64,000 bases of DNA from assembly GCA_039545335.1 (NCBI GenBank), contig BCIN01000004.1, forward strand, positions 796,925 to 860,924. The letters run 5' to 3'. The notes under the pieces are model-generated. The model worked only from the letters and a program-made list of their open reading frames with translations, made no database searches and was not told the DNA's origin. Positions 462 through 48,001 of this stretch are shown here, one piece after another. The number at the start of each line of letters is the position of its first letter. Position 1 is the first letter of the stretch. Position numbers and translations under genes: made by a program. The stretch is from Kondoa subrosea. Taxonomy: Eukaryota.

Positions 462-1046
462 AGGGATGGGATTGAACAGAGAAGAGATGCAGAAGTGTGC
501 AGTAGACCGAGAGGATAGCGCAACCCTTAGTAACAGCGAAACTCCGAGAACCGATCTTCTGAAGTTTAGAAGGCAGTGCCGTCAAGCGAGGCGATAGGTT
601 GAAGTGGCTGTAGCTTGGCCGACGTAGACCGAGTACCAAGACTTGCTCAAGAAGCGATGGCGGATGACAGGCAACAATGCATGAAAAAAAAACAAGCAGA
701 TCTTTATGCAGGAACGGCCGCCATACAAAATGGAGGCGTCAATGAGTAATCCAGCCGCCGGTCCCATCCTCTTGGCGATCTAGCAGTACATGTATCGCTG
801 CGAGTCCATTACAATACTCAACTTCAGCAGGCAGATCAATCTCGGTATTACGTAATCGGCTCTGCTAAGGCTTGCTGAGGATTTGTCGATGGGAGCTCGA
901 TGACTGACTGCATCAACTGACTGCATCTTTTTGACTACTCCGATACTGCTACAAAGATTAGTTTCATGCAATCGCAATGTTTAGCTATATACTTTTTCTT
1001 CCAAATCGGCTTATGCAACACGCTCATGTTTCCTCTTCTGTGCTTC

Positions 1047-1869
1047 TTAAACTCGCTTCTGAATCTCTACTACTCCTTGAAACTCTTCTTCGTTCGAGTA
1101 ATACACTTCTTCCGGGTAAAGCGTTTGCTCCAAAACACCATAATGATGAGGGTTGGATTGACAAGCTTGAGATTGCTGGTAAAGGTACATTGGATGACCT
1201 TGATACGATTGATAGGTATGAGGAGGGATGAAGGCTGATCTCTGTTCCACAGGTGAAACGGAAGCCGAACTTTGGTGATTTGGTAAAGAAGGTGCAAACC
1301 ATCCATCGTTCGAAGAGCTGTTGTATGAACTTTGATTAGAGATAGCTGGAGAAGGTTGAGAAAAGGGAAGAGGTTCAAGATGGATCTGCTGCGGTGCTGC
1401 TACGAAATCTGGTCGGCCCCCATTCTTTTCAGCAAGAAGACTTCGCAAATAGTGGTTCTCGCTGTAGGTACCTGAGCAAAGCTAGAGTGAAGATCAAAGG
1501 CCTGGACAAACCTTTCAAGCTGTTGATTGATCGATTGCAAGTCTGCTACGGTCTGTTGACTTTTCTGGTAGTCTTTTCTCAACTTTGCTAGGTCTTGGTT
1601 CTTTTCAATCCTACGTTGCTTCTGTGATTGTTTGGCTCGGTCTAATCGAATGCTCTGCGACACGTGGGCTATCAGATCTACAGGGCAGAGTTTGCAGACC
1701 TGTGTGCTGACTTCTCTCATTTCCGCTTCTACTAGACTTTTGACTGTGGTAGGGGACCATTAGCTATGTCTATGAGGCTCAGATAAGGGAACTTACTTGT
1801 ACGTGGAGGCCCGACAGCAGGCACAAGGATCGCACCCGAACGAAGCGCTAGGGGACCGCTATCGTACAT
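1047..1869 (-). CDS. bZIP-like transcription factor (multi-exon)
   Basis: Manual splicing gives MYDSGPLALR...ERKSIRLDRAKQSQKQRRIEK (basic region) followed by LAKLRKDYQKSQQTVADLQSINQQLER (heptad coiled coil) and a Q/S/P-rich C-terminus. Confidence 0.55.
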
Positions 1870-3265
1870 TTCTGAGGGTTTGCAGATGGTTTTCAAGGCA
1901 AGAGCAAAGAACAAAGGGAGAGAAAAAGAGGCAAAGAAGAAAATCTATAATGGGAAAGTCACAAGCCCATCTTCTGAACATTTGCGCGAATATAGCGCGG
2001 TGATTAGACCCCATGACTTAATCTGGTTCCGCTATTGCATTCTTTCTTCTGTAGAGAAGGGTGAACCTAAAATTTGGCAGAGAGAGAGATAGAGCAGCAC
2101 AGTATCTAACGGGATGACTGAGTTGCTCTGAAAACGTTTCGGAATAATTTCGCTCGACTACGTCCGCGTAGACAATGTAATTGATCTTTTCTCGAGTAAG
2201 CACTGACGGTTTGCCGTTGCCATAGGATGATTTACTTAGAGTTGAGATCGAGTTTCAAAGAAGACGAACTTTGTGCTATTAAGCTGTGGGCGACAAGCAG
2301 TCCTTGAGTCCAAAATCATCACGGATAGTCCTAACCGAAAGCCCGGCTCTCGTAAGTATCAAGGAGAATGAGGACTTGGGAACTCAAAGTCCAATGTTGC
2401 GAATGCAAAGCGACAGACAGGTGCATCTGTTCTGCGTCAGCCAGCGGGACTGCCGAAAGGCATATAGACACTGCCCAGGTAACGGCATTCGGTGACGACA
2501 GAGCTGAATTGCATCATTTATTGTCTAAAACACAGATGATTGCCTAAATGAATCGGTCATGATGGATGGATCATACGAATTACTAAGTAGCATCATCACG
2601 AAATCGATGTAACCAAACAGAAGCGAAGGCTGCTGTTCAGAACCTCGTCTAGTTGTACAAGTACAAAACAGATGTTGCAGCGGATACAGATAGAAACAGA
2701 ACAATTCCCTACAGCCAGGCCATATCCATGCTCTAGTTGCTTGAAATCAGCTAATAGAGAGCGACAAAGAGATTCAACCCAGAAATGTGTGCAGCACTTT
2801 CTTGAAAAATGAAAGCAAGATCGATCAGAAGAGGTTTCTGCATTAATGCCGCAGAGGAAAGAGAAAGATCAGAACATGAATTGGCGTAGACTGGCGAATT
2901 AAAGCTTCAGCGCGATTGACGTACACGAGTAGACGAAGTCCAAGGGCGAGTTCGATACCACATCAATATCGAGGGTTGCGGAAGGCTTCGCAAAGTAGTT
3001 TAGGGGGCATGTATAGGAATTGGTACAACGATTACTCTGCAACTACTAGGTTTGCGCTGTACAAAAAGAAAAAGACGGTATATGGTAAAGTATCGCGGGA
3101 AAATGTCCACACCTCTAAATATAATAAAATGCTCAAAATGCAACTTCTCTCTCTTCTTTCTCTTCTCTTGCTTCCTTTTGGTCGATTCGCTTGAGTCTGC
3201 TCTCTGCACGAATGACATCTTTCCTCATCTTATCTCCTATGTCTCTCCTTTTCCTTCATCTCTTT

Positions 3266-5372
3266 CTACAGGGCCGAGTTTCTCGATGATCGACCAGTCA
3301 ACCAAGCCGCACCAAACAGCATCAATAAAGAGGAAGCTCCAACAGCAATAGTAGCTTGCAACCTCAGAGCAGACGATTCTCTGGTGTTACCGAAAAGTGA
3401 TGGCGCGCCAGTTGCTGGGTTTCTTTGGGTGGTGAAAGCCACTTGTCCACAGTACTTGGTGCACACCGATGATGTTTCTTCAGCTCCTCCTGGTTGACCT
3501 GCTGGAACACCGGAAGAAGGGATATTGCTAGGTGGTTCTCTGTAGTTTGCCCTGTATGATCCCATCATACATTAGGTCGACTTCAACCTGTCCGCTGAAA
3601 AGACATACCACGAGACACGAGTTGCGAAACCAGCGAGATCGGTAGAGAAAGCGCTTGCAATAGCTGTGTCATTGACAAATCGGTAATCACGCAAATCTTG
3701 GTCTCCGGTGTCTCCTTCAACCTTTTCGTATTCTGCGTAATAGATAATGAGCACACGAGCCGTGATTGGATGCACTCTAACTGACCGAATTGCATGATCA
3801 GCTTCAGACGAGGGAATGTATTCAAGAATGCATCATTCATGATACATTGTTGCCACCTGTAGAGAAATACGGTCAATGAAATCCGGGGGAGGCATCAGGA
3901 GACTATTGCATACCATGTTTGCTTAATTGAAAGATCAGTAGCTCCGCCAGCCACGTCTACGTGGTAAGCAGCACCAGACTCTGAGAACTATACAAAACAC
4001 GAGCTGCATTAGCTCCAGGCATCAGACACAGCAAGGACAGCCGCGCACCATGCATGCTTTGTTGGTCTTCAAGCAATAATCTTGATAAAATGGTTCAGGT
4101 AATTGAGCGCCTGAGAATGGATCAATAGAGTTCATGATGTTTGTGCAGTATTGTGCAGGTTGAGCTTGATTGATGTTTTGCCCATAATTCGGTCCTTTCC
4201 AGTCTAATTGCGGTAAATATTCCATCAATATGTAGACCGAAGGCAATGTGAGATAGACGTACAGACCGATAGACCGATCCAGTCGACTACATCATCTCCG
4301 GGATCTGTGCGAAGTGCAATTAGCTTTCAACGAAAAATAGCTTCATCGGGAGTGAACGAACAATAAGGCGCATATGGATCATCAGCTGCTGTTATTTGAC
4401 CATCTCCACTGGTATCCAGAGCGGCGACTTCAGCAGCATTGGCGGGGGCTAGACAATCAAACATGAGCATATGTCTTAAATTCGCCACCGGCGGGCTGTG
4501 AAAAAGGTGTCTCACCAGTTTGGCCATAAGGATAACTATGATTGCGATTCAACACTTGCTCTATCAACGAGAAAAAACAAGCTTACCCAGTTCCCAAATT
4601 AGGCGCCCAGACAATAATTGTTTTTGGTGCAATTGCTTTAATGGCAGGATACATTGTTGCCCACATTGCTTTGTACGCTACTGGTTGGAAACCATATCTA
4701 TTGCTCACCATCAGTATACCTTCACTGCTTCATTGTCGCGGTGAACTAACGCAGCATTCCAAGTACCTTGCATTTCAGGCGCGAAACGCAAGTAAGTTGT
4801 CCGATCGTAATTATCCGTGTCTATTAGTGCCGAGCGTCAACCATACTCTTCCACTTAAGCTTAAGAAAGGGTACCAACAGTTTTTGAGTTGGTTGCCAAG
4901 AGCTTCATAATCGCTATCAGCCAAATTGAGTGTTGTAGGGTAAACAGTCAAAAAGACTGCTGCGTCGCTGAAAGATTGTTCAATGAGGTATTCAGGTGCT
5001 GGTCCACCCGCGCCTAAGCTCTCATTCAGTCCTGTAGGCCGAGAATGCAAGCTTCTGCTTTACCGGTGACATAGTCGTAGGCTGGTAAAGGCATGTCTTG
5101 AGATATTTGAAACACTGAGGTGTTGAAGCCTATCCTTCTGTTGAATTCAAAAGGGTTGTCCGCTCCTGGGAACACAAACTCAAGTGTTAGTGGCCTGACC
5201 GCGAGGAATATGCAACCTCCTTACCATCCATTGTATCTATCCATGCTCCGAACAAGATCTGGTTGCCTGAAGGTTCACCTAGTGCTTGCGCCGATGCTTG
5301 CAAGGCAAAGAAGGAGCTGAACAGAGGCAGCAACGCCGCAACGGCAGAAAGCTGGGTCCGCGTTGAAAGCAT
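3266..5372 (-). CDS. Secreted glycoside-hydrolase-like protein (GH26-like), probable GPI/C-terminal anchor
   Basis: N-terminal signal peptide; LFGAWID, DAAVFLTVYP, DDPYAPY, ESGAAYH segments; hydrophobic C-terminal tail after an S/T/P-rich linker. Confidence 0.7.
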
Positions 5373-24487: not shown

Positions 24488-25083
24488 TGTTCGCAGATAA
24501 GCAAACGAAAAAGAAAAAACCTCACCTTGTCTTGAAGCGGTCACCCGTCAAAGTCGCGATTTAGTGTGTGTATCAAGAGAATCATACCCTACTGCAGAGA
24601 TTCCCTGTGATGGCAGAATAGAATCGAAAGGTGTTGCTGTCACTTGCTTGCTCTCGTTATTTGCCTTTCGTATTTGGATCTTCCACTATGTTATACGAAA
24701 GCGAACAAGTCAGACTCTAATGCCTCTGTGGATATCCCATGCATCGCTTCTAGTGTGGTTTGGCATGAACGAGCAGCTCGTGATATCGATTACGTAATCA
24801 CTGTTATGCAAGCCTGGCGTGCTGTCTAGTCGAAGACTTGATTGTTTGCGTATGGCCCTTTATCGATGGGCTTGGGCTGGTAGAAATCTACGGTTGATGC
24901 ACTACAAGATCATCTTCTATACTCGCGAACCTCTTACATTGTTGCCGAAGCCGTCTCGCTTTTCCGTATGACAGATGCCCTTTGTTCTAATCATCGGAAT
25001 GAGTCAATTACTTATACACGTATATCCATCGAATGCATTCATGCCTGTTGCTGTTGAAAGATTTATTGCTTATCAAGATCTCC

Positions 25084-25836
25084 CTACATATTGTTGTTGT
25101 CCCTCGCTGTCTTTGCTTCACGATACAGAGCAGGTCGTCCACCTTTCTTATCATCCGGCCAACCTTCTGGGTACAGATGTGTGGTAACCTTGAAGCCCCT
25201 TGATGTGTATAGACCAAGACCTGCTGGACTGCTTTCCAGCCAAGTCGGATTATCTTGTTGGTCAATGTATTGCAGAAAGTGATCCAGAAGTTTCTTGCCG
25301 ATGCCGTTGCGTTGCGCTTTAGGGTCAATGACCAGCGTTTCAATATACCCTTTAAACCAAGCATCAAGACAGCTATCAAAAAAAGGGGACATGCCAATGC
25401 GGAACATACAACAGCCACCTTGCACACCTTCTTCAGCCAACTTGTGATTGATGGCCGCTTGAGAAGCTTTGCGATAGCTATTTGACATTTCTATTCGCAA
25501 AGCAGCCCAATCTTCTTTTTCCTCTTCTGACATCTTTTCTACATCCAGCATAGCCACTTCTCTGCCCGGTTTGCGTCCATAAATCACTCCAACTACCTCT
25601 CCTTCCGCATTGACAGCTTTCCATCCAATGTAATCAAAAACAAGTTGTCGACGAATGACGGAAGCTAGTCTTTGTACACGAACGTCTTGAGATGGACGCC
25701 ATTCGAATGGTTCCATAATTGCTGTGTCCGCTCCAAATTCATCAAACGCATTCAGTTGACATCGAGCAATGTTGATTAATTCGTCTTGAGAGTCACCGCG
25801 AACGGCGCTGATAGCAATGTCGAAAGTCATGGTCAT
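25084..25836 (-). CDS. GNAT-family acetyltransferase (single exon)
   Basis: 250-aa ORF with IETLVIDPKAQRNGIGKKLL (motif A) and LESSPAGLGLYTSRGF (motif B). Confidence 0.9.
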   Translation of the reverse strand: MTMTFDIAISAVRGDSQDELINIARCQLNAFDEFGADTAIMEPFEWRPSQDVRVQRLASVIRRQLVFDYIGWKAVNAEGEVVGVIYGRKPGREVAMLDVEKMSEEEKEDWAALRIEMSNSYRKASQAAINHKLAEEGVQGGCCMFRIGMSPFFDSCLDAWFKGYIETLVIDPKAQRNGIGKKLLDHFLQYIDQQDNPTWLESSPAGLGLYTSRGFKVTTHLYPEGWPDDKKGGRPALYREAKTARDNNNM

Positions 25837-26543
25837 ACAAGAGCAAGAGGCACATTGACTCGAATGTGCACAAGTTGGAGGAATCTATTTCTGGCTCACG
25901 GCAATGTCGAAACGCGTCAGATTGACCTCGCGTGATCGTACATTTCGTAGCTGTACCAAACAGAGCGGGTCAGTCTGCTTCCTTGTTACACACTGAACAG
26001 CTTTAAGCTGAAGGATGGGAAGGCATCAGAGAAAGCAAACACTGATTTTCTCTTTCTCCGCCGATATCGGTCAAGTTCGTCCATGTTTGCATCAATCCGT
26101 CAATGAGGTTTCAGGTGCTGTAAAGCAGGAAATGCAGCTTTGCTCTGCTCGAATCCTAGCTCCCTTTGCGATACCGACTTGCATTCGAGTCGCTTCCGAA
26201 GAATTCTCGCCTTCTTTCGTCAAGCGAGCCATTCCTTTTTGCCTGCTCAACGGTCATGAATGCTTGCGTATCACTCTGGACGTACTATGATTCTGTCAGT
26301 AATCAAGAAGAATCAGTCACTTTACATTTTTCAGCTTTGTCGTCTCCAGCAAAGGAGAACTCTACTGGCGGGCCAGAGCGAAACGGACTACGGACAGGAC
26401 CGATAGTACTCGAGATCGGTTCGGCGCTTCACATCATACTTGCAAGACGATACTGTACGGCCAAAGANTTTTGACGAAAATCGCGCCCAGATCAATCTCT
26501 GGTGTTCCCACACCGAGTATGAGCGCGTCAAATACCGGTTCGC

Positions 26544-26742
26544 GGGAGTTTGGCTGAGTGGTCTAAAGGTTGGTCTGCCCTGGTCGCTCGGTCTGGATCT
26601 GTCTGACTTGGATTTGCAGCGGTAGCCTAGAATTTCATAGTTCAGCTATTATCCTCTGGATGCGTAGGTTCAAAGTCAGTAGCTCAGATGTTGTTATGGT
26701 TCTCCGTCTGATCTGAGTGTTACAACAGTCCTGCAGCTCTCG
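26544..26742 (+). tRNA. tRNA-Ser(AGA) split by three introns: exons 26544-26568, 26620-26632, 26644-26674, 26729-26742
   Basis: The spliced 83-nt sequence folds as a cloverleaf: acceptor GGGAGTT/AGCTCTC, D stem GCT/AGC, anticodon stem GTAGC/GCTAT with loop CT-AGA-AA, variable arm ATCC-TCT-GGAT, T arm GTAGG-TTCAAAT-CCTGC, discriminator G73. Confidence 0.88.
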
Positions 26743-26754
26743 AACCGATTCAAC

Positions 26755-26763
26755 TTTTTTTTT
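26755..26763 (+). terminator. Oligo-T (T9) Pol III-type terminator
   Basis: T run begins after a 12-nt trailer downstream of G73. Confidence 0.7.
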
Positions 26764-27197
26764 GGGTGGAAATTTCGTTAATCTAGCTTCAACCAATGGC
26801 CCTTTCGCCTCAGACACTACCAATATACTGCTTCACCTGATTTCGTTCATCTGGAGCACACAAGTAACTGATCTCCAGTGGTGTTGGCAATTTCGACATA
26901 GGATGATTTACATGCTGACAAATTTTCCCGCCAGATTTCCAGAGACATCCTGGAGAGAGGATTTCAAGGTCTCAGTAGAGCATTCTAATACCACCATCTA
27001 CAACATCAGCGACATGCTGTAGTGTATGGAGATGATATTAGCTCTCTCTCACTGTGCTGAATGATGCTGCTTGCCCACTTCAAAATGCGCGCTGTGCACA
27101 AAGTCCAAGCTATGCTGCTCAAGCACGTTTCTCCCTTTTCCCTTTGTTCTTCTTGCTATCGTCTACAGCTGCTTCTCTTCTTCCATCCTTCCTTCAT

Positions 27198-27960
27198 ATG
27201 TTGAACCTTCGTATTCGGTCAGCAGTCGCAAAAGATGTCGCGGCTCTTGCAGACCTTTACACTCGCTCATCCGAGCAAAGCGCACTAGCAAATTTCGTTC
27301 AACCTCAGATCAAGAGCTCAAAGGTCTCCTTCCTTGCTTTAGAAACCTTCAAGCGAAGATTAGGCGAGACCTCTGTTGCTGAAATCAGGATCAAGAACTT
27401 CTGGACAGTCGTCGGAATGGTGATGTATCAGTCTGCTGGACCACTCAAGAGACCTACAGAGGAAGAAATGGCAGCGAAAGGTTAGTCCGAGGCTTTAAAT
27501 TTGGGGATCGGTCTGACCGCAATGATAGAGCTCATCAGATCGTGCGAAGATCAGTATAGGCGCGATCTAGTCAACCAAGCGCTGAAGGAGAGGGAATCGA
27601 GGTGAAATTTCCCATTTCGAGGCTATCTTCTTGGCTGAATTTCCTTCGAAAGATACTTCGCAGGCCATATCAAAGCAGAGATGCATTTCGATCCTTCCTT
27701 TGCTCATCTGAGGTACGATGATTTGCCTATCGTGAAGTCTGCAGCTCATTGCCAACAGCATTGAGAGTGCACTTTCGCAACATGTCAAGGATGTAGCCAA
27801 TCGTCTTCAACTCCCAATCTGTCTCATTTCTGACTCGCCAAATCAGTGCTTCGATACTCTCGAGCGCGTTGTCATCCAAGACGATCGCCCAAGTCTGAAA
27901 CGATCATTGCTTCTTTCGATCCAATCATACAGCCCGATAACGAGCGCAAGAATAGAATGA
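27198..27960 (+). CDS. Divergent GNAT-fold protein, three introns
   Basis: MLNLRIRSAVAKDVAALADL GNAT-type start. Introns at 27481-27528 (GTTAGT..CTGAC..TAG), ~27602-27652 and ~27713-27758 restore an open frame ending ...SARIE*. Confidence 0.65.
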
Positions 27961-27989
27961 ATTGACAATTCAGGTATACATTGTACGAT

Positions 27990-29110
27990 GACAGAAAGCA
28001 AGAGCTACGGTAATCCGATGCTATGTCTTTCATTGACACGGGCAAGACAGGCCTGAGAGGTTTTGACAAACTTGCCAATGGCTTCCAGTTGACTTAGAGC
28101 GGCCACTGCATTTGCCTGCTAATCGCTTCATACCCACAGAACCAGTTAGCATAGCTGAATATCGAGCTCTTGATACCCTTTCACTGGAATCCCGGGCTTG
28201 CATACATTGGCCAGCAAGCTTCCTCCATTGAAAACATGAAAGCGGTGTAGCAGTGGAAGGATTGTGTGCTGGTTGTGATGTGGTCGCCTGAACGTATACT
28301 GTGATGGACCTGCGCAGCCTGATTGGATCTCGTCTGGCCCAGGCTGGCCTTTCTTTGCTGAAATCAAACAAGGTCTTTGCGAGGCATTTGGACATCACTG
28401 CTTGACTTGTGAATGGTAGCGGGGTCGAGAGCAGAAATGTATGCTCATACTTCAGCACTCGAGCGATTCCAGCAGTCAGATAGGATTGATCTGCGAAGCA
28501 ATGCAGCGGTTTGCTTGATCGGCAAATTATAAAGCTCTCATCATCATTTCTCTTGCTCAGGAATCAGCTCGGCTTGTCACGATCTGTTGTATCCGGCCGT
28601 ACTGGATTCATCGAATGCACTACTCCGCATATTTGTGCGCTTGCAAATAATCTCGATACACGCATCGTACAAAAGATCGAGCTGCAAAAGTGTCGACCTT
28701 CTTAATGGCCTTACCACGACAAGCGGAAGAGAAGAGACTACTTCGCACCGCTTGACTGCTTTCACAAAGTCTCCTTTGCAGCTCTTCCTCGAATCAGAAA
28801 GTGCTGTTCTCGCTTTGTTTTGTCAGCTGCGGTTCATCTACGAGCAGATTTTCAGATATGTATTGCGAACACTGCCATTCGCTCTACTTTCAAGACTTGC
28901 TGCATCAAATTTGTACCTGTTCACAAGATAGTCAGAATTGTCCTGAAGCGGAAAAGCACTCACCACCTATAAAGCAGCAGTAAAAGATGTCCAGCATACT
29001 GTGATGCAATCGCGATTCCGGCTTTGAGTTCGCCGTATCGAATCAGTGCAATCTACGATTTCGCCTTCGTTCGTCAAGTGAGCCATTCCTTTTTGCCTGC
29101 TCAACGGTCA
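27990..29110 (-). other. Unresolved intron-containing or decayed gene
   Basis: Clear minus-strand intron gtgagt...ctgac...aacag near 28917-28963 flanked by an open frame (LLLLLYRW|YKFDAAS). A full ORF could not be built. Confidence 0.25.
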
Positions 29111-30137
29111 TGAATGCTTGCGTATCACTCTGGACGTACTATGATTCTGTCAGTAATCAAGAAGAATCAGTCACTTTACATTTTTCAGCTTTGTCGTCTC
29201 CAGCAAAGGAGAACTCTACTGGCGGGCCAGAGCGAAACGGACTACGGACAGGACCGATAGTACTCGAGATCGGTTCGGCGCTTCACATCATACTTGCAAG
29301 ACGATACTGTACGGCCAAAGAATTTTGACGAAAATCGCGCCCAGATCAATCTCTGGTGTTCCCACACCGAGTATGAGCGCGTCAAATACCGGTTCGCGGG
29401 AGTTTGGCTGAGTGGTCTAAAGGTTGGTCTGCCCTGGTCGCTCGGTCTGGATCTGTCTGACTTGGATTTGCAGCGGTAGCCTAGAATTTCATAGTTCAGC
29501 TATTATCCTCTGGATGCGTAGGTTCAAAGTCAGTAGCTCAGATGTTGTTATGGTTCTCCGTCTGATCTGAGTGTTACAACAGTCCTGCAGCTCTCGAACC
29601 GATTCAACTTTTTTTTGGGTGGAAATTTCGTTAATCTAGCTTCAACCAATGGCCCTTTCGCCTCAGACACTACCAATATACTGCTTCACCTGATTTCGTT
29701 CAACTGGCGTACCCGAGTTATTGAATTCCAGCGGTGTTGGCAAATTCGACATAGGATGATTTACATGCTGACAAATTTTCCCGCCAGATTTCCAGAGACA
29801 TCCTGGAGAGAGGATTTCAAGGTCTCAGTAGAGCATTCTAATACCACCATCTACAACATCAGCGACATGCTGTAGTGTATGGAGATGATATTAGCTCTCT
29901 GTCACTGTGCTGAATGATGCTGCTTGCCCACTTCACAATGCGCGCTGTGCACAAAGTCCAAGCTATGCTGCCTAAACACAGCGCCATTTCTCCCTTTTCC
30001 CTTGGATCTTCTTGCTATCGTCTACAGTTGCTTCTCTTCTTCCATCCTCCTTCGCATGTCGGACCTTCGCATTCGGTCAGCAGTCGCGAAAGATGTCGCG
30101 GCTCTTGCAGACCTTTACACTCGCTCATGGGAGCAAA
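29061..30137. repeat. Direct repeat copy 2 (~1.07 kb) of 26207-27279
   Basis: Same sequence as copy 1; ends inside the duplicated GNAT 5' end. Confidence 0.97.
29398..29596 (+). tRNA. tRNA-Ser(AGA), second identical copy; introns 29423-29473, 29487-29497, 29529-29582
   Basis: Identical to 26544-26742; followed by T8 at 29609-29616. Confidence 0.88.
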
Positions 30138-30151
30138 TGCGGAATGAATGA
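30056..30151 (+). pseudogene. Truncated duplicate of the GNAT 5' end
   Basis: MSDLRIRSAVAKDVAALADLYTRSWEQMRNE*; homology to the gene at 27198 stops at the repeat boundary. Confidence 0.75.
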
Positions 30152-30261
30152 CAAACCAGGTATCCATTGTATGATGATGGAAAGAAAACTTCACAATCTA
30201 AATAAAGTCTTTTCAAATGTCCTTTGTATATATCATTCCCGTGATTTTTCTCCTCCCTCTT

Positions 30262-31501
30262 TCAAACCACATGCCCATCATTGTTCGTTCGCCTTGTTGC
30301 AGGCTCATCGTTCAGCTCTACTCCTCTTAACGTTGTTTCCGAAGTATCGTAACCTCCTCCTTCTTTTTCTTGAGGAGGTGCTTTGAAATCGCCTCCCTGA
30401 ATTTTCGAGTAATCAGCTTCTTGCCTTCAAGAAAAGATTACAAATACAACGCACTGCATAGCCTGGAGGACCTTGTTGATCATAGGGACCATAAGTAGGT
30501 GGTGCGTATTGACCAGAAGGAGGTGCACCGTAACCTGGAGTATAGGCAGGTGCTTGGAAAGGCGCATCCTGAGAGTATGGATTCATTTGATAAGCTGCGG
30601 AAGGTGCGTTCATGCGTAAGTTTTGTGGGTTCTTGGATTGATGATAGTATGCTGCTGCTAGTGATGTAGAGAAGGCCTATGAAAGAGCTGAGTTTAATTC
30701 TACTGGAGTATGGATGAGAGTCCTCACGCCGAAGATAGCCAGACCGATAAGCCATGCGCTGAGTTCTGATCAGATACAGTAAATACGAGATACGACGCAG
30801 CTCACATCACATATGCTATAGTTCTCTTCCAACTACCAAAACACATCAGCTGAACGGTCTGAGTACCAGAGACATGTTTAAACGCACAGAGTCTCGCAGT
30901 CCTCTTGAGAATTCTGAGGTATGTCTACCAGCGGACTGTTCGAGTAGTAATCTGAATCGCCTCCAGAGACGCATTGCGCAATAATATCCTTTTTGAAGAC
31001 GAAATGGAACACTATCCGGCAGACGATGGAGACTAGAAGAAGACCGGCGCTAACGAAAGCTAGGTACATGTACATCTTGATGAGTTTCAGCCGTCTCTGT
31101 TCGTGGACGCATCAGTTTTATATTACTTCATATGCAAATAAATGACATACTGTTGCTGCTGCTATCAGACCATACGTTTCTATACAGCCTATCGCTATAC
31201 AGAGACCTCCCATAACGCCGTCTGAAATCTTCAATCCAGAGGTTTCACCCTCGCTTTTAGTCTTTTGGTCAAGCTTGCTCTGTCTTATGCATCAACTGAC
31301 TCACTCATTCAGTGCTTTGAGATAGCCAGTGCCGACTATGAAGGACCATATCATGCCTAAAAAATACAGCAATGTTTCAGCACGAAATCTCGTCAATTGC
31401 TTAAAGGAAACAGGCTGACCAATGGTAGTAAAGAAGATTACAATAGGTCTTAAATCTTTCTTGTACGCGCGAGTAACCACTCTAGCATCTAGAAATCCCA
31501 T
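30262..31501 (-). CDS. Multi-pass membrane protein with P/Y/G-rich C-terminal tail
   Basis: Several hydrophobic exons (GMIWSFIVG, GGLCIAIGCIETYGLIAA, YLAFVSAGLLLVSIV) and YAPPTY/PPGY motifs. Confidence 0.75.
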
Positions 31502-35210: not shown

Positions 35211-36960
35211 CTAGGACCCTCTTGGAAGCTGCCGATCTGCATGAGCTACTTCGTATTCCGCCAGAAATCGATCCTTGCACAACAGCTTGAAGCCGACATT
35301 TGGCTTGGTAGGGTCAAGCACGAAATCATCGCCGATTCCAGGCACAACGTCTAGCTCTGATGCAGAAGGATGTCGACGTGGTGTGTGATCGTGCTTGTGA
35401 ACTGCAGTCAAGAATTCAAGAATAGGCTTCGAGATCCATCTTCGCTTAGAGCCCGTGAACCAACCGATGTGACCTCCGCTGACGGCATAGTCAGCAGTGA
35501 ATCCGTATACATTTTGCGACCTACTGCTTTGTTGTTGCAAGAGCTAGATTAGACTTCTGCCGGAAAATACCTAGCGGTACAGAGCTGTATGCAGTGATGG
35601 GATCGCTCTCGCTGGTATATAAATTCAGTTACCTTGTGTTTACAATGCAGCTTGCTCACCTGTGGAAAGCCAGAAGAGGAATAGTGACGTTGGATAGATC
35701 GAAAGCGCTCGAAGCGGCGACGTAGTAGTCATCGACAGATTTGTATCCCCATACGCGAGCAGTGAAGTCTCTATCGAACTCGTATAAAGACTGCTTCGGC
35801 TTCTGCAACGCGCACTTCCAGGAAAATCTAGAATCCGTCTCGAACAGATGTCGATACTTCACAACGATACGACGGAGATTGCTGGCCATTTGACGAGAAT
35901 AAAACCTTCCAGACCATGAGGAGGCGAAGCCTGACATGAGCTTGTGAAAGTCCCAAGGATTGCTGATGATGCAAACTGCTTTCAAGATTGTGTCATCGCC
36001 ATCTTCGCCCGCAAGCTTCGTGAGAATATTAGAGCCAAGACTGAAGCCGACTATGGCAGTCAAGAAGCGTAAACATGAGCGAACAGAAGTTGCTATTGAG
36101 GAGGCTCTTGACTTACCTCCGTACAAAGGTGACCGAGCTAATTTAAAGCAGTCTAGCAATTGATTACTCGGTTTGGGCAAGGAAAATGACTTACGAAAGC
36201 GCCGATTCAAGTGAAGTAGAGTGCAACGAGCATCGTCAGAATAGCTAGCGCTATTTTAAGTAGTCAGCTCATTCGACAAAGGACTTCATGCCAAGTCATT
36301 CACTTGTAAAGTTGAGCGGTTGATAGGTATGCAGCAGGACCGCACCCTCTTGCATGCATGACAACAGTTTGCCAGCCTGAATCGACGGCTTCCTTACTAC
36401 CGATCGGACGCACGACTCGTGACTTCCTGCTCAAGGTATCTCAGTCTTCTGAGGATCAAGGCAAGTCAGAGGTAGCAGGAACGTACCGCCACACACGCTA
36501 TGCAGAACGAGAAGAACAGGTCGACCATCTGGTGTATCATCTTGCAAAGGCGGCGAGAAGTCTAAGCTCAGGTTGCCTCCATCGGGAAGGCCAATATATT
36601 GTCGCTCGTAAAGTACTTCATCAACGGTCGTAAAGTCTCCACTGTACTGGTCATTAGCCATGTCTTCAACGAAAACAGACTCAAGAGAACTTACAGAGCA
36701 TTGAAAAGCATTTGTGAATGGCCCGAAAGAAGATGCAAAGGCGGTGTATAGTAAGATTTTAGAGAAGGACAATTATCCAGAATGGCACGCAGGATTGGAT
36801 CTATTCGAGGAGCATGGATAAGGGAGACCTTCGACGATAGACCTAGAGGAACAAGGAGGAACTGGATGATGACGTCCCCGAGAGCTCGAATGGGAAAGCA
36901 TTCCAATATACGTCCACGAGCGAAGGCCAGGATAGATAAGGAGTCTCGAAGGGTATACAT
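35211..36960 (-). pseudogene. ABHD/YheT (Eht1/Eeb1-like) alpha/beta hydrolase with a 1-nt frameshift
   Basis: GFSLG nucleophile, ESDP and GGHIG motifs. SHESCVRSVV is out of frame with EAVDSGWQTVVMHARGCG at 36393-36395. Confidence 0.7.
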
Positions 36961-46254: not shown

Positions 46255-48001
46255 ATGCTTTCTTTACCTGACTCTCCTTCCTTTCTCACGTTCGCTCACG
46301 GACAATTGGTCAAGAGCTCCTCGCCAAAGCAGGCTTTGGCTGATGGACTGGCTCGATACCTTCTTGCTCCTTTAGGTCTCTCTTCAAAAGTCGCTCTATC
46401 TCATGCTCCTCATCTGGACTCGAACATGCGTAAAATGCTAGACTCTTGCTCTGGACTGAAAGAATACTACACACCGCCCCTACATCTTCTAGGAGGTCAT
46501 CTTCCAACTCTGTACAACGCTCTGTGAGTTTCTTCATCCCTGAAAAGAAAAGATAGTCATCAGAAGCCGAAGCTCATGAGACAAAACCGACAGGGCCAAT
46601 TTTCAAGGCATTGATGAGGCGGTGTACGAACGACAATATATTGGCCTTCCAGATGGGGGTCACTTGAGCTTAGACTTCTCGCCTCCCTTCTCTGTCGCTC
46701 CTCATGACAATCGACCAATTCTCTTCATTTGCCATAGCGTAACTGGAGGTGAGCCGAAGAAGGATCATTCCGATAAGGAGGACTGACGACTCTTTTAGGC
46801 AGTCATGAATCCTGTGTAAGATCTGCAGTTCAGGAAGCGCTTTCGAAAAACTTCCGAGCTGTGGTAATGCATGCAAGAGGCTGTGGAGAAATTTCTCATT
46901 TATCAACCGCTCAGCTGTACAAGTAAGTAATAATATGGATTCAGTGCTATAGAGATATGTCCTGACCATTAAGATAGCGGTTCATATACGGATGATGCTC
47001 GCTGCGCCTTGCTATACCTCAGTCGCTTGTTGCGTAAGTGATGAATCTCTATGTCGTGGAAGAGAGGTCACAGTCATGCGCGCAGCGGATGCACCTGTCT
47101 ATGGTGGTACGTTTACCCAGGGTCATGCTGCTATTCTGAGTTATCAGGATGCCCCGCAGTCGGATTCAGCTTAGGCTCGAACATTATGACCAAGCTCGTT
47201 GGCGAAGATGGCGACGAGACGACCTTGAAAGCAGTTTGCATACTCAGCAACCCTTGGGACTTTCACAAGCTGATCTCCAACTTCGAATCATCGATTCTTG
47301 GACGACTGTACTCACGTCGTATGGCAAGTAATCTGCGTCGAATCGTATTGAAGTATCGACATCACTTCGAAACGGATTGTCGAATCTCTTGGAAGCGCGC
47401 TTGCCAAACATCTAAACAGTCTTTACATGATTTTGACAGAAATTTCACTGCTCGTGTCTGGGGTTATCAATCTGTTGAAGATTACTACACCGCTGCTTCT
47501 AGCGCTTTCGATCTGTCCAAAGTTACTGTTCCGCTACTGGCTTTCCACAGGTGACTGCACTGTATGTCCCTCTTGTATTGTCTAAGATTTATGGTAGCGA
47601 AAGCGATCCCATTACTGCCTATAGTGCAGTTCCCCATGATATCTTTCAGCAGAAGCCCAATCTGGCTCTCGCGACCACAAAGCAGTACGTCTTCTTTTGC
47701 ATCTCTGTGCAATCCGATGCTGATAGAACTGCTCAGTGGTGGCCATATTGGCTGGTTCGCGAATTCGAAGAGAAGATGGGTTTCAAAGCCGGTCCTCGAG
47801 TTCTTGACTGCAGCTCACAAACATAATCCAGCTCCTCGACGTCATCCTTCTGCTTCAGACTTAGACAAAACGCCTTCAGTCGAAGACGATATGGTTGTGG
47901 ATGCCTCCAAGCCGAATGTCGGGTTTAAGCTGTTGTGCGAGAATCATGTTCTGGAACATGAAAGCGCCTCGGCAGATCAACTTATCGGTAAAGGCTCTTA
48001 G
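46255..48001 (+). CDS. ABHD/YheT (Eht1/Eeb1-like) alpha/beta hydrolase, apparently intact paralog
   Basis: Same exon structure as 35211-36960; GFSLG, ESDP and GGHIG in frame. Confidence 0.88.

Follow-up and report, generated by a model that had tools for sequence, protein, structure and literature searches.

A duplicated tRNA-Ser(AGA) gene of Kondoa subrosea and a genome-wide class of tRNA genes with introns bearing spliceosomal signals

Introduction

Why would a tRNA gene that is interrupted three times be present in two neighbouring copies that agree in every base, introns included, and what kind of introns are these? The question is raised by a stretch of 64,000 nucleotides of Kondoa subrosea DNA, termed the window in what follows, to which all coordinates refer unless a genome position is given. 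Multicopy tRNA genes undergo duplication and concerted evolution. An initial annotation of the window had described the second copy as sequence-identical to the first, and had considered dosage duplication or homogenisation as its cause. The analysis reported here leads to a different emphasis: the second copy as such is ordinary, and the class of gene that it copies is the important point.

Results

Anatomy of the tRNA-Ser(AGA) gene

The second copy of the gene (copy 2) is composed of the following elements.

29398..29422, + strand: exon 1, tRNA positions 1-24 (5' strand of the acceptor stem, D arm, intact A box)
29423..29473, + strand: intron A, at 24/25, 51 nt, spliceosomal type (donor GTTGGT, branch CTGAC with the A at 29460, end CAG)
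29474..29486, + strand: exon 2, positions 25-37, anticodon AGA at 29483-29485
29487..29497, + strand: intron B, at 37/38, 11 nt, canonical tRNA intron
29498..29528, + strand: exon 3, positions 38-59 (3' strand of the anticodon stem, serine-type variable arm of 14 nt, T arm up to position 59)
29529..29582, + strand: intron C, at 59/60, 54 nt, spliceosomal type (donor GTCAGT, branch CTGAT with the A at 29565, end CAG); it breaks the B box
29583..29596, + strand: exon 4, positions 60-73, discriminator G73
29609..29616, + strand: T8 run, the likely polymerase III terminator of copy 2

Cutting out 29423-29473, 29487-29497 and 29529-29582 leaves a tRNA-Ser(AGA) cloverleaf with the invariant bases, G73, the G15-C48 pair and a long variable arm, in which 20 of the 21 stem pairs are intact; the exception, G13-A22, is also found in Ser(TGA). 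A gene of the other Ser(AGA) type is present at G000:C8:166380-166800 (L092), and has two introns, GC-AG at 14/15 and GT-AG at 30/31, but no canonical one. The window gene differs from it by five compensatory stem-pair changes and one one-sided change. With both partners altered in five stem pairs, the spliced form appears to have been under selection.

The three inserts announced by the initial annotation as those of a triple-intron tRNA are real. They fall into two types, however, with B a canonical tRNA intron and A and C GT-AG introns, and it had been missed that two of the three are mRNA-type. The distance from the branch motif to the intron end is 14 nt in intron A and 18 nt in intron C. 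In intron B the antepenultimate base is a T that faces C32, so that the standard A-I pair is absent, and this C32/T mismatch occurs in 4 of the 25 canonical introns examined. By eye, leader 29390-29397 and trailer 29595-29601 can pair, which would lengthen the acceptor stem of the precursor.

ARAGORN found no tRNA in the raw window, and no Rfam family reached its gathering score there; within 28900-30300, Rfam returned three weak chance matches only, and thus no upstream partner RNA. When a near-correct splice of the window gene, made within the script, was submitted to ARAGORN, Ser(aga) was reported. Readings as Cys(GCA) or Ala at the end of the first intron were dropped, as they lie inside intron A.

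Two genomic copies in a direct repeat

The repeat that contains both copies has the following layout.

26207..27280, + strand: repeat unit 1, 2854 bases upstream of unit 2
26544..26742, + strand: copy 1 of the tRNA gene, introns at 26569-26619, 26633-26643 and 26675-26728, T9 run at 26755-26763
27281..29060, no strand: spacer between the repeat units, at single-copy depth and without homology to the DNA upstream of unit 1
29061..30138, + strand: repeat unit 2, comprising the tRNA gene, flanking DNA and the beginning of a putative protein gene

As had been claimed for the exons and all three introns, 199 of 199 bases of 29398-29596 match 26544-26742 in the alignment within the window. A search of the 18.9-Mb genome found exactly two occurrences of this 199-base sequence, both in the window. 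The copies sit in a direct repeat of about 1.08 kb, the units of which are 2854 bases apart and in the same orientation. Its 39 differences over 1079 columns consist of two at the very start, one N, the T indel and 35 distal differences, which all lie beyond 26850/29703, within the distal ~430 columns. Perfect identity, given an N in copy 1, spans 529 bases. The identical block starts 318 bases upstream of the gene, where copy 1 has an N at 26468, and extends through the gene and trailer to 94 bases beyond the T run; it has about three times the length of the gene, and its flanks are as identical as the gene itself. Around the gene the divergence between the copies is 0%, and it reaches 9-17% distally, at the far end. 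The earlier statement that other parts of the repeat have diverged is therefore correct for the distal half, whereas the 318 upstream bases and the 94 bases after the T run contradict it. Similarly, the reported contrast between T8 and T9 exists in the assembly (29609-29616 in copy 2 versus 26755-26763 in copy 1); the collapsed read-derived contigs of both sequencing runs carry T8 and do not confirm the T9 of copy 1.

Past the repeat, about 670 bases of the downstream putative gene are missing after copy 2 as compared with copy 1, and beyond this deletion the 46 bases 30142-30187 resume the match to 27955-28001 at 83%. Single exons of the gene downstream of copy 1 had no significant match in Pfam. 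Other genes in the surroundings include an intron-free GNAT acetyltransferase gene upstream of copy 1 (25087-25839, - strand, Pfam PF13673 and PF00583) and two inverted paralogous hydrolase-like genes (35656-36624 and 46611-47554) that are 77-84% alike and about 10 kb apart.

A perfectly identical stretch of 529 bases, with an N in copy 1, together with the lack of any contig that bridges a whole repeat unit with both flanks, might suggest that two haplotypes were mis-assembled into a spurious second copy. This was examined by read depth over 24500-31000, using contigs from two DNA runs of one sample, which is possibly the source of the assembly. The repeat had a depth of 243.6 in run X1, as compared with 144-147 for single-copy DNA, and of 102.5-114.6 versus 52-55 in run X2. 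In both runs, a spacer contig of 1869 bases had the depth of the two outer flanks, that is, the full single-copy level. Because a haplotype mis-join would give a repeat of single depth and a spacer of half depth, the approximately doubled repeat and the single-copy spacer mean that there are two genomic copies. The upstream flanks of the units are moreover unrelated, and copy 2 has a deletion of its own. A mis-assembly that presents one copy as two, the outcome that the initial annotation wished to see checked by depth, is thus hardly credible, and the second copy is a true segmental duplication. All three inserts are present in the contigs with zero mismatches. The earlier conclusion that they are no sequencing artefact is borne out by these contigs and by 29 other interrupted genes, but not, as had been argued, by the twin copy, which is not independent.

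A local segmental duplication has hence copied the tRNA-Ser(AGA) gene; the duplication may either be recent or have since been homogenised by gene conversion over the first ~620 bases of the repeat. Selection for the dosage of the main serine tRNA may keep the pair identical, which would be compatible with this history. The genes found in several copies mostly serve common codons (three each for Asp, Glu(CTC), Val(AAC) and Ser(AGA)), and the gradient from 0% near the gene to 9-17% at the far end is what a conversion tract would give. However, a neutral recent duplication or conversion yields the same picture, and the flanks are as identical as the gene. With non-coding flank inside the identical block, the identity points to a recent date of duplication or conversion rather than to selection, and a role of dosage is considered possible but not probable. 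Local pairs of tRNA genes, 3-17 kb apart and often inverted, were also noted elsewhere (L020/L021, L077/L078, L081/L082, L066/L067, L009/L106 and L108/L109), some of their members being truncated at the 5' end. tRNA-anchored local duplication seems to be frequent in this genome.

Genome-wide census of interrupted tRNA genes

A census was compiled from an Rfam tRNA search (at least 19 matches; 63 candidates out of 689 were scored), from a pattern that combined a B box with a T run (79 rows) and from three further patterns. Among the 51 B-box loci inspected, 26 were not tRNAs and four were partial copies, and a further set of 20 pattern loci contributed six tRNAs; the partial copies L066, L069, L081 and L096 were left out of the count. 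In total, 49 complete-looking tRNA genes were found, which represent all 20 amino acids. No gene was found in this census for Lys(CTT), Thr(AGT), Pro(AGG), Glu(TTC), Gly(TCC/CCC), Ser(CGA), Arg(TCG/CCG) or Val(TAC). Because several expected isoacceptors are among the missing ones, the count of 49 is a minimum, and further genes without introns may have been missed.

GT-AG-type introns are widespread in this set: 38 of them are present in 31 of the 49 genes, seven of which have two, and they are absent from 18. They occupy more than 20 positions, from 5/6 to 63/64, but leave the stretch between 31 and 46 free. For Asn, Cys, His, Ile, Lys, Met (initiator and elongator), Phe, Pro and Ser, every gene that was found is interrupted, and the Lys(TTT) gene has a second intron. 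Positions 13/14 and 24/25 recur across different tRNA types. Further triple-intron genes are those for Pro(CGG) (L055) and Ala(CGC) (L123), each with two GT-AG introns and a canonical one. The Thr(CGT) gene L059 (G000:C1:3980750-3981170) has three extra bases past position 37, which are either a canonical intron of minimal size or part of an anticodon loop of 10 bases, and the Tyr gene L106 has imperfect stems.

A serine-specific scan of the genome gave 46 matches; one of these was a real tRNA (interrupted), and 10 others among them that were checked were not tRNAs. A T-loop-plus-donor pattern had 24 matches versus 27 in the control, the two window copies being the only tRNAs. Scanning metagenomes for Ser/Leu T arms with an intron at 59/60 returned two matches, both chance occurrences in GC-rich coding DNA, and no look-alike of the window locus was seen in the metagenome scan or in the other genomic windows compared.

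Type of the introns

Statistics were based on 36 distinct introns, leaving out copy 1 of the window gene. The GT/GC donor and the AG end were required by the annotation, whereas the bases at +5, +6 and -3 and the branch signals were not selected for. The introns are 47-69 nt long (median 51.5), with 35 GT donors and one GC donor. Of the 36, 32 have a G at +5, 35 a pyrimidine at +6, 33 a pyrimidine at -3, and 30 a CTNAY branch motif. For the first 30 introns, 25 had the branch motif, as compared with 4.6 in shuffled sequences (maximum 14 of 2000), and 27 had the +5G/+6Y combination, which is found at 11.8% of background GT dinucleotides. The exon preceding the intron ends in G in 18 of the 36 cases and in AG in eight. 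For comparison, protein homology, with intron pairs searched jointly, was used to delimit four mRNA introns in a homoserine acetyltransferase-like gene nearby; they have a length of 47-65 nt and the same signals, although they come from one gene and are a small sample. The best named relatives of the encoded protein are from Microbotryomycetes (82-83%), with Aspergillus close behind, which would suit a Pucciniomycotina-like fungus. Judged by their sequence, introns A and C carry U2-type signals that match those of the mRNA introns of this genome.

The intron borders were also assessed independently of these signals by comparing the cloverleaf that results from any possible cut. A purpose-built cloverleaf score was used, since ARAGORN proved too permissive when canonical introns were left free. 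Excision at the GT/GC-AG borders had the top score for 22 of 30 introns, among 949-3519 alternatives, and the other eight were not ranked first by this crude score. Intron C came out top and intron A was 23rd (35.9 versus 37.4), because a slide by three bases gives a G13-C22 pair in place of the class II G13-A22. Scores of 88 non-tRNA controls did not exceed 25.4, as compared with at least 31 for interrupted tRNAs.

Triple-intron tRNA genes with introns in the D arm, at 37/38 and in the T loop are known from Cyanidioschyzon merolae and crenarchaea (PMC3728597, PMC4090602), which raises the question of whether the tRNA endonuclease also excises the ectopic introns here, via a bulge-helix-bulge motif as in these organisms. 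This motif (a 4-bp helix with two 3-nt bulges) was found in none of the 36 introns at any equivalent cut, although relaxed forms without the helix exist in C. merolae. All introns are GT/GC-AG and most have a branch motif, features that endonuclease introns do not need according to PMC10275265. Bulge-helix-bulge splicing was thus rejected as an explanation and is regarded as very improbable; spliceosomal removal is the likely mechanism for the mRNA-type introns. Descent from an introner or transposon-derived intron family was also rejected: only paralogue pairs align among 30 introns, no sequence is shared beyond these pairs, and the intron of L108 is unique in the genome.

Paralogues with and without an intron

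Three Val(AAC) genes, L108 (G000:C2:3112230-3112650), L109 (C2:3128860-3129280) and L107 (C2:3007780-3008200), have identical exons. L108 and L109 share the upstream flank, the exons and the canonical intron, and their sole difference within the gene is a GT-AG insert of 53 nt at 53/54 in L108. This insert is also absent from the more distant copy L107 and occurs nowhere else in the genome. No T run follows L108, which thus lacks a terminator. As read from these sequences, the trio is a case of precise intron gain or loss between close paralogues. A similar case is the remnant L069 (G000:C3:243040-243460), which lies 12.7 kb from the Ser(GCT) gene L068 and lacks exactly its 51-nt intron; this decayed Ser(GCT) copy is either a pre-insertion relic or a copy of a spliced RNA. 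In the Leu(AAG) pair L079/L086, 15 of 50 intron bases differ as compared with 1 of 79 exon bases, and both genes nevertheless keep donor, branch and acceptor.

Promoter elements and transcription

Many of the mRNA-type introns fall within the A or B box. Upstream regions were inspected for 48 tRNA genes (the window gene counted once) and the U6 gene of this genome (L097:1501-1606, - strand), which is intron-free. An upstream element with the sequence YTACA, set in (G)YYYTACAR, is present at -92 to -48 in 36 of these 49 regions, against a background of 7.6% per 45 bases, and is often followed some 20 bases later by a TATA-like stretch. It is common to U6 and intron-free tRNA genes. Thanks to this element, a gene can probably stay active although introns occupy its A and B boxes. 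Type 3 polymerase III promoters, which depend on SNAPc, combine an upstream element with TATA; the SNAPC3 family was not found in the genome, a weak negative in view of its intron density. The 13 regions that do not have it include the only Asp and Gly genes found, the B boxes of which are intact. A second upstream motif of repeated GAAACGA units was seen at about -110 to -130 of L008, L011, L017, L048, L064, L067 and L090.

The window copies scored -0.7 for the upstream element, as compared with a background median of 0.0. An A box and a T run are present, and no intact B box was found on either strand within 29001-30000. Because the B box is broken, the element is absent and the other Ser(AGA) gene, L092, carries the element, the window copies may be weak or silent. 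It is conceivable that their introns are spliceosomal but both copies silent or decaying, with L092 supplying Ser(AGA) and the identity of the pair reflecting a recent duplication. The extension of the identical block into non-coding flank, the truncation of the downstream gene at copy 2 and the truncated tRNA duplicates elsewhere (L066, L069, L081) would fit such decay. The intact cloverleaf with its five compensatory changes relative to L092 speaks against it, as do the intact splice signals and T run and the 13 regions that lack the element, including those of the only Asp and Gly genes found (though B boxes are intact there). On balance, silence of both copies is judged unlikely.

The broken A or B boxes of many genes, and the lack of either usual promoter part at the window gene, could also mean that interrupted tRNA genes are transcribed by polymerase II or lie within polymerase II transcripts, from which they would be cut out after co-transcriptional splicing. 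A possible GT-AG intron in the upstream block of the window gene, seen by eye, would be in line with this. However, T runs closely follow nearly all tRNA genes, the upstream element also precedes U6 and intron-free tRNA genes, and a TFIIIC B-block subunit is encoded in the genome. Transcription by polymerase II is thus an improbable origin of these tRNAs.

Discussion

The locus is best read, with fairly high confidence, as a recent or homogenised local duplicate of a tRNA-Ser(AGA) gene that belongs to a genome-wide class with U2-type spliceosomal introns. The precursor would be transcribed by polymerase III up to the T run. The spliceosome would then remove introns A and C, by way of the GT donor, the CAG acceptor and a branch A located 14-18 nt before the intron end, and the loss of both introns would restore the D stem and the T loop and so permit the cloverleaf to fold. 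The folded cloverleaf would in turn allow the tRNA endonuclease and ligase to take out the 11-nt intron B, after which RNase P, RNase Z and CCA addition would complete a serine tRNA that reads UCU/UCC.

A broader reading, to which we incline with more reserve, is that the spliceosome has become essential for tRNA processing in this organism. Most tRNA genes, and all those found for nine amino acids and the initiator, would have U2-type introns, at more than 20 positions, and some precursors would depend on both machineries, with two introns for the spliceosome and one for the endonuclease. The A and B boxes would have been freed for such introns by a U6-like upstream element, and the introns would still be precisely gained or lost, as in the Val(AAC) trio.

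If true, spliceosomal introns in most tRNA genes would tie the translation capacity of the cell to its spliceosome, and tiny, probably uncapped polymerase III transcripts would be spliced routinely. Such introns would also explain why tRNAs are missed by standard tools, as illustrated by ARAGORN and Rfam, which found nothing in the window. Furthermore, paralogues with and without one exact intron would form a small, testable system for intron gain and loss, a long-standing question.

Parts of this picture are familiar. Identical gene and intron sequences in neighbouring copies are likewise a feature of multicopy tRNA genes under concerted evolution, from which the pair in the window does not differ in any essential way; such concerted evolution is mentioned in PMC5832005. 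According to PMC10275265, eukaryotic tRNA introns are located at 37/38, have unconserved ends and are removed by a protein endonuclease, unlike mRNA introns. Intron B agrees with this type in its 11 nt, its location one base 3' of the anticodon and its unconserved ends, but is without the standard A-I pair, and the type accounts for only one of the three introns.

In outward form, the closest resemblance is to C. merolae, nucleomorphs and crenarchaea, for which PMC3728597 and PMC4090602 likewise describe up to three introns per tRNA, in the D arm, at 37/38 and in the T loop. The promoter boxes are interrupted there as well, and compensating upstream signals have been proposed; for C. merolae, PMC3728597 puts forward that upstream signals carry the tRNA genes with interrupted boxes and also describes relaxed motifs without a central helix. 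The introns of these organisms rely on a bulge-helix-bulge motif and the endonuclease, whereas here the motif occurs in 0 of 36 introns and all have spliceosomal signals. The TFIIIC B-block subunit is present here, in contrast to C. merolae, from which it is reported to be absent.

In kind, the introns resemble those of small fungal RNAs. PMC5855946 and PMC5832005 list mRNA-type introns in U6, U1, U2, U5, U3 snoRNA and rRNA genes, and PMC5855946 describes fungal U6 RNA, a product of polymerase III, as being spliced by the spliceosome. These introns are likewise short, with canonical donor, branch and acceptor, and reside in a small structured non-coding RNA; several may be present per gene, with unrelated sequences and at many positions, and U6, too, is a polymerase III transcript. 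A search of open full texts returned no description of spliceosomal introns in tRNA genes. Here, introns of the kind known from small fungal RNAs are seen in another host RNA, the tRNA, a class that we could not find described and a host that is absent from the lists of the two reviews (PMC5855946, PMC5832005). Unlike in the cases of U6 and the other RNAs, the introns adjoin canonical endonuclease introns in one precursor and break internal promoter boxes, and 31 of the 49 tRNA genes found are affected while the U6 gene of the same genome has no intron.
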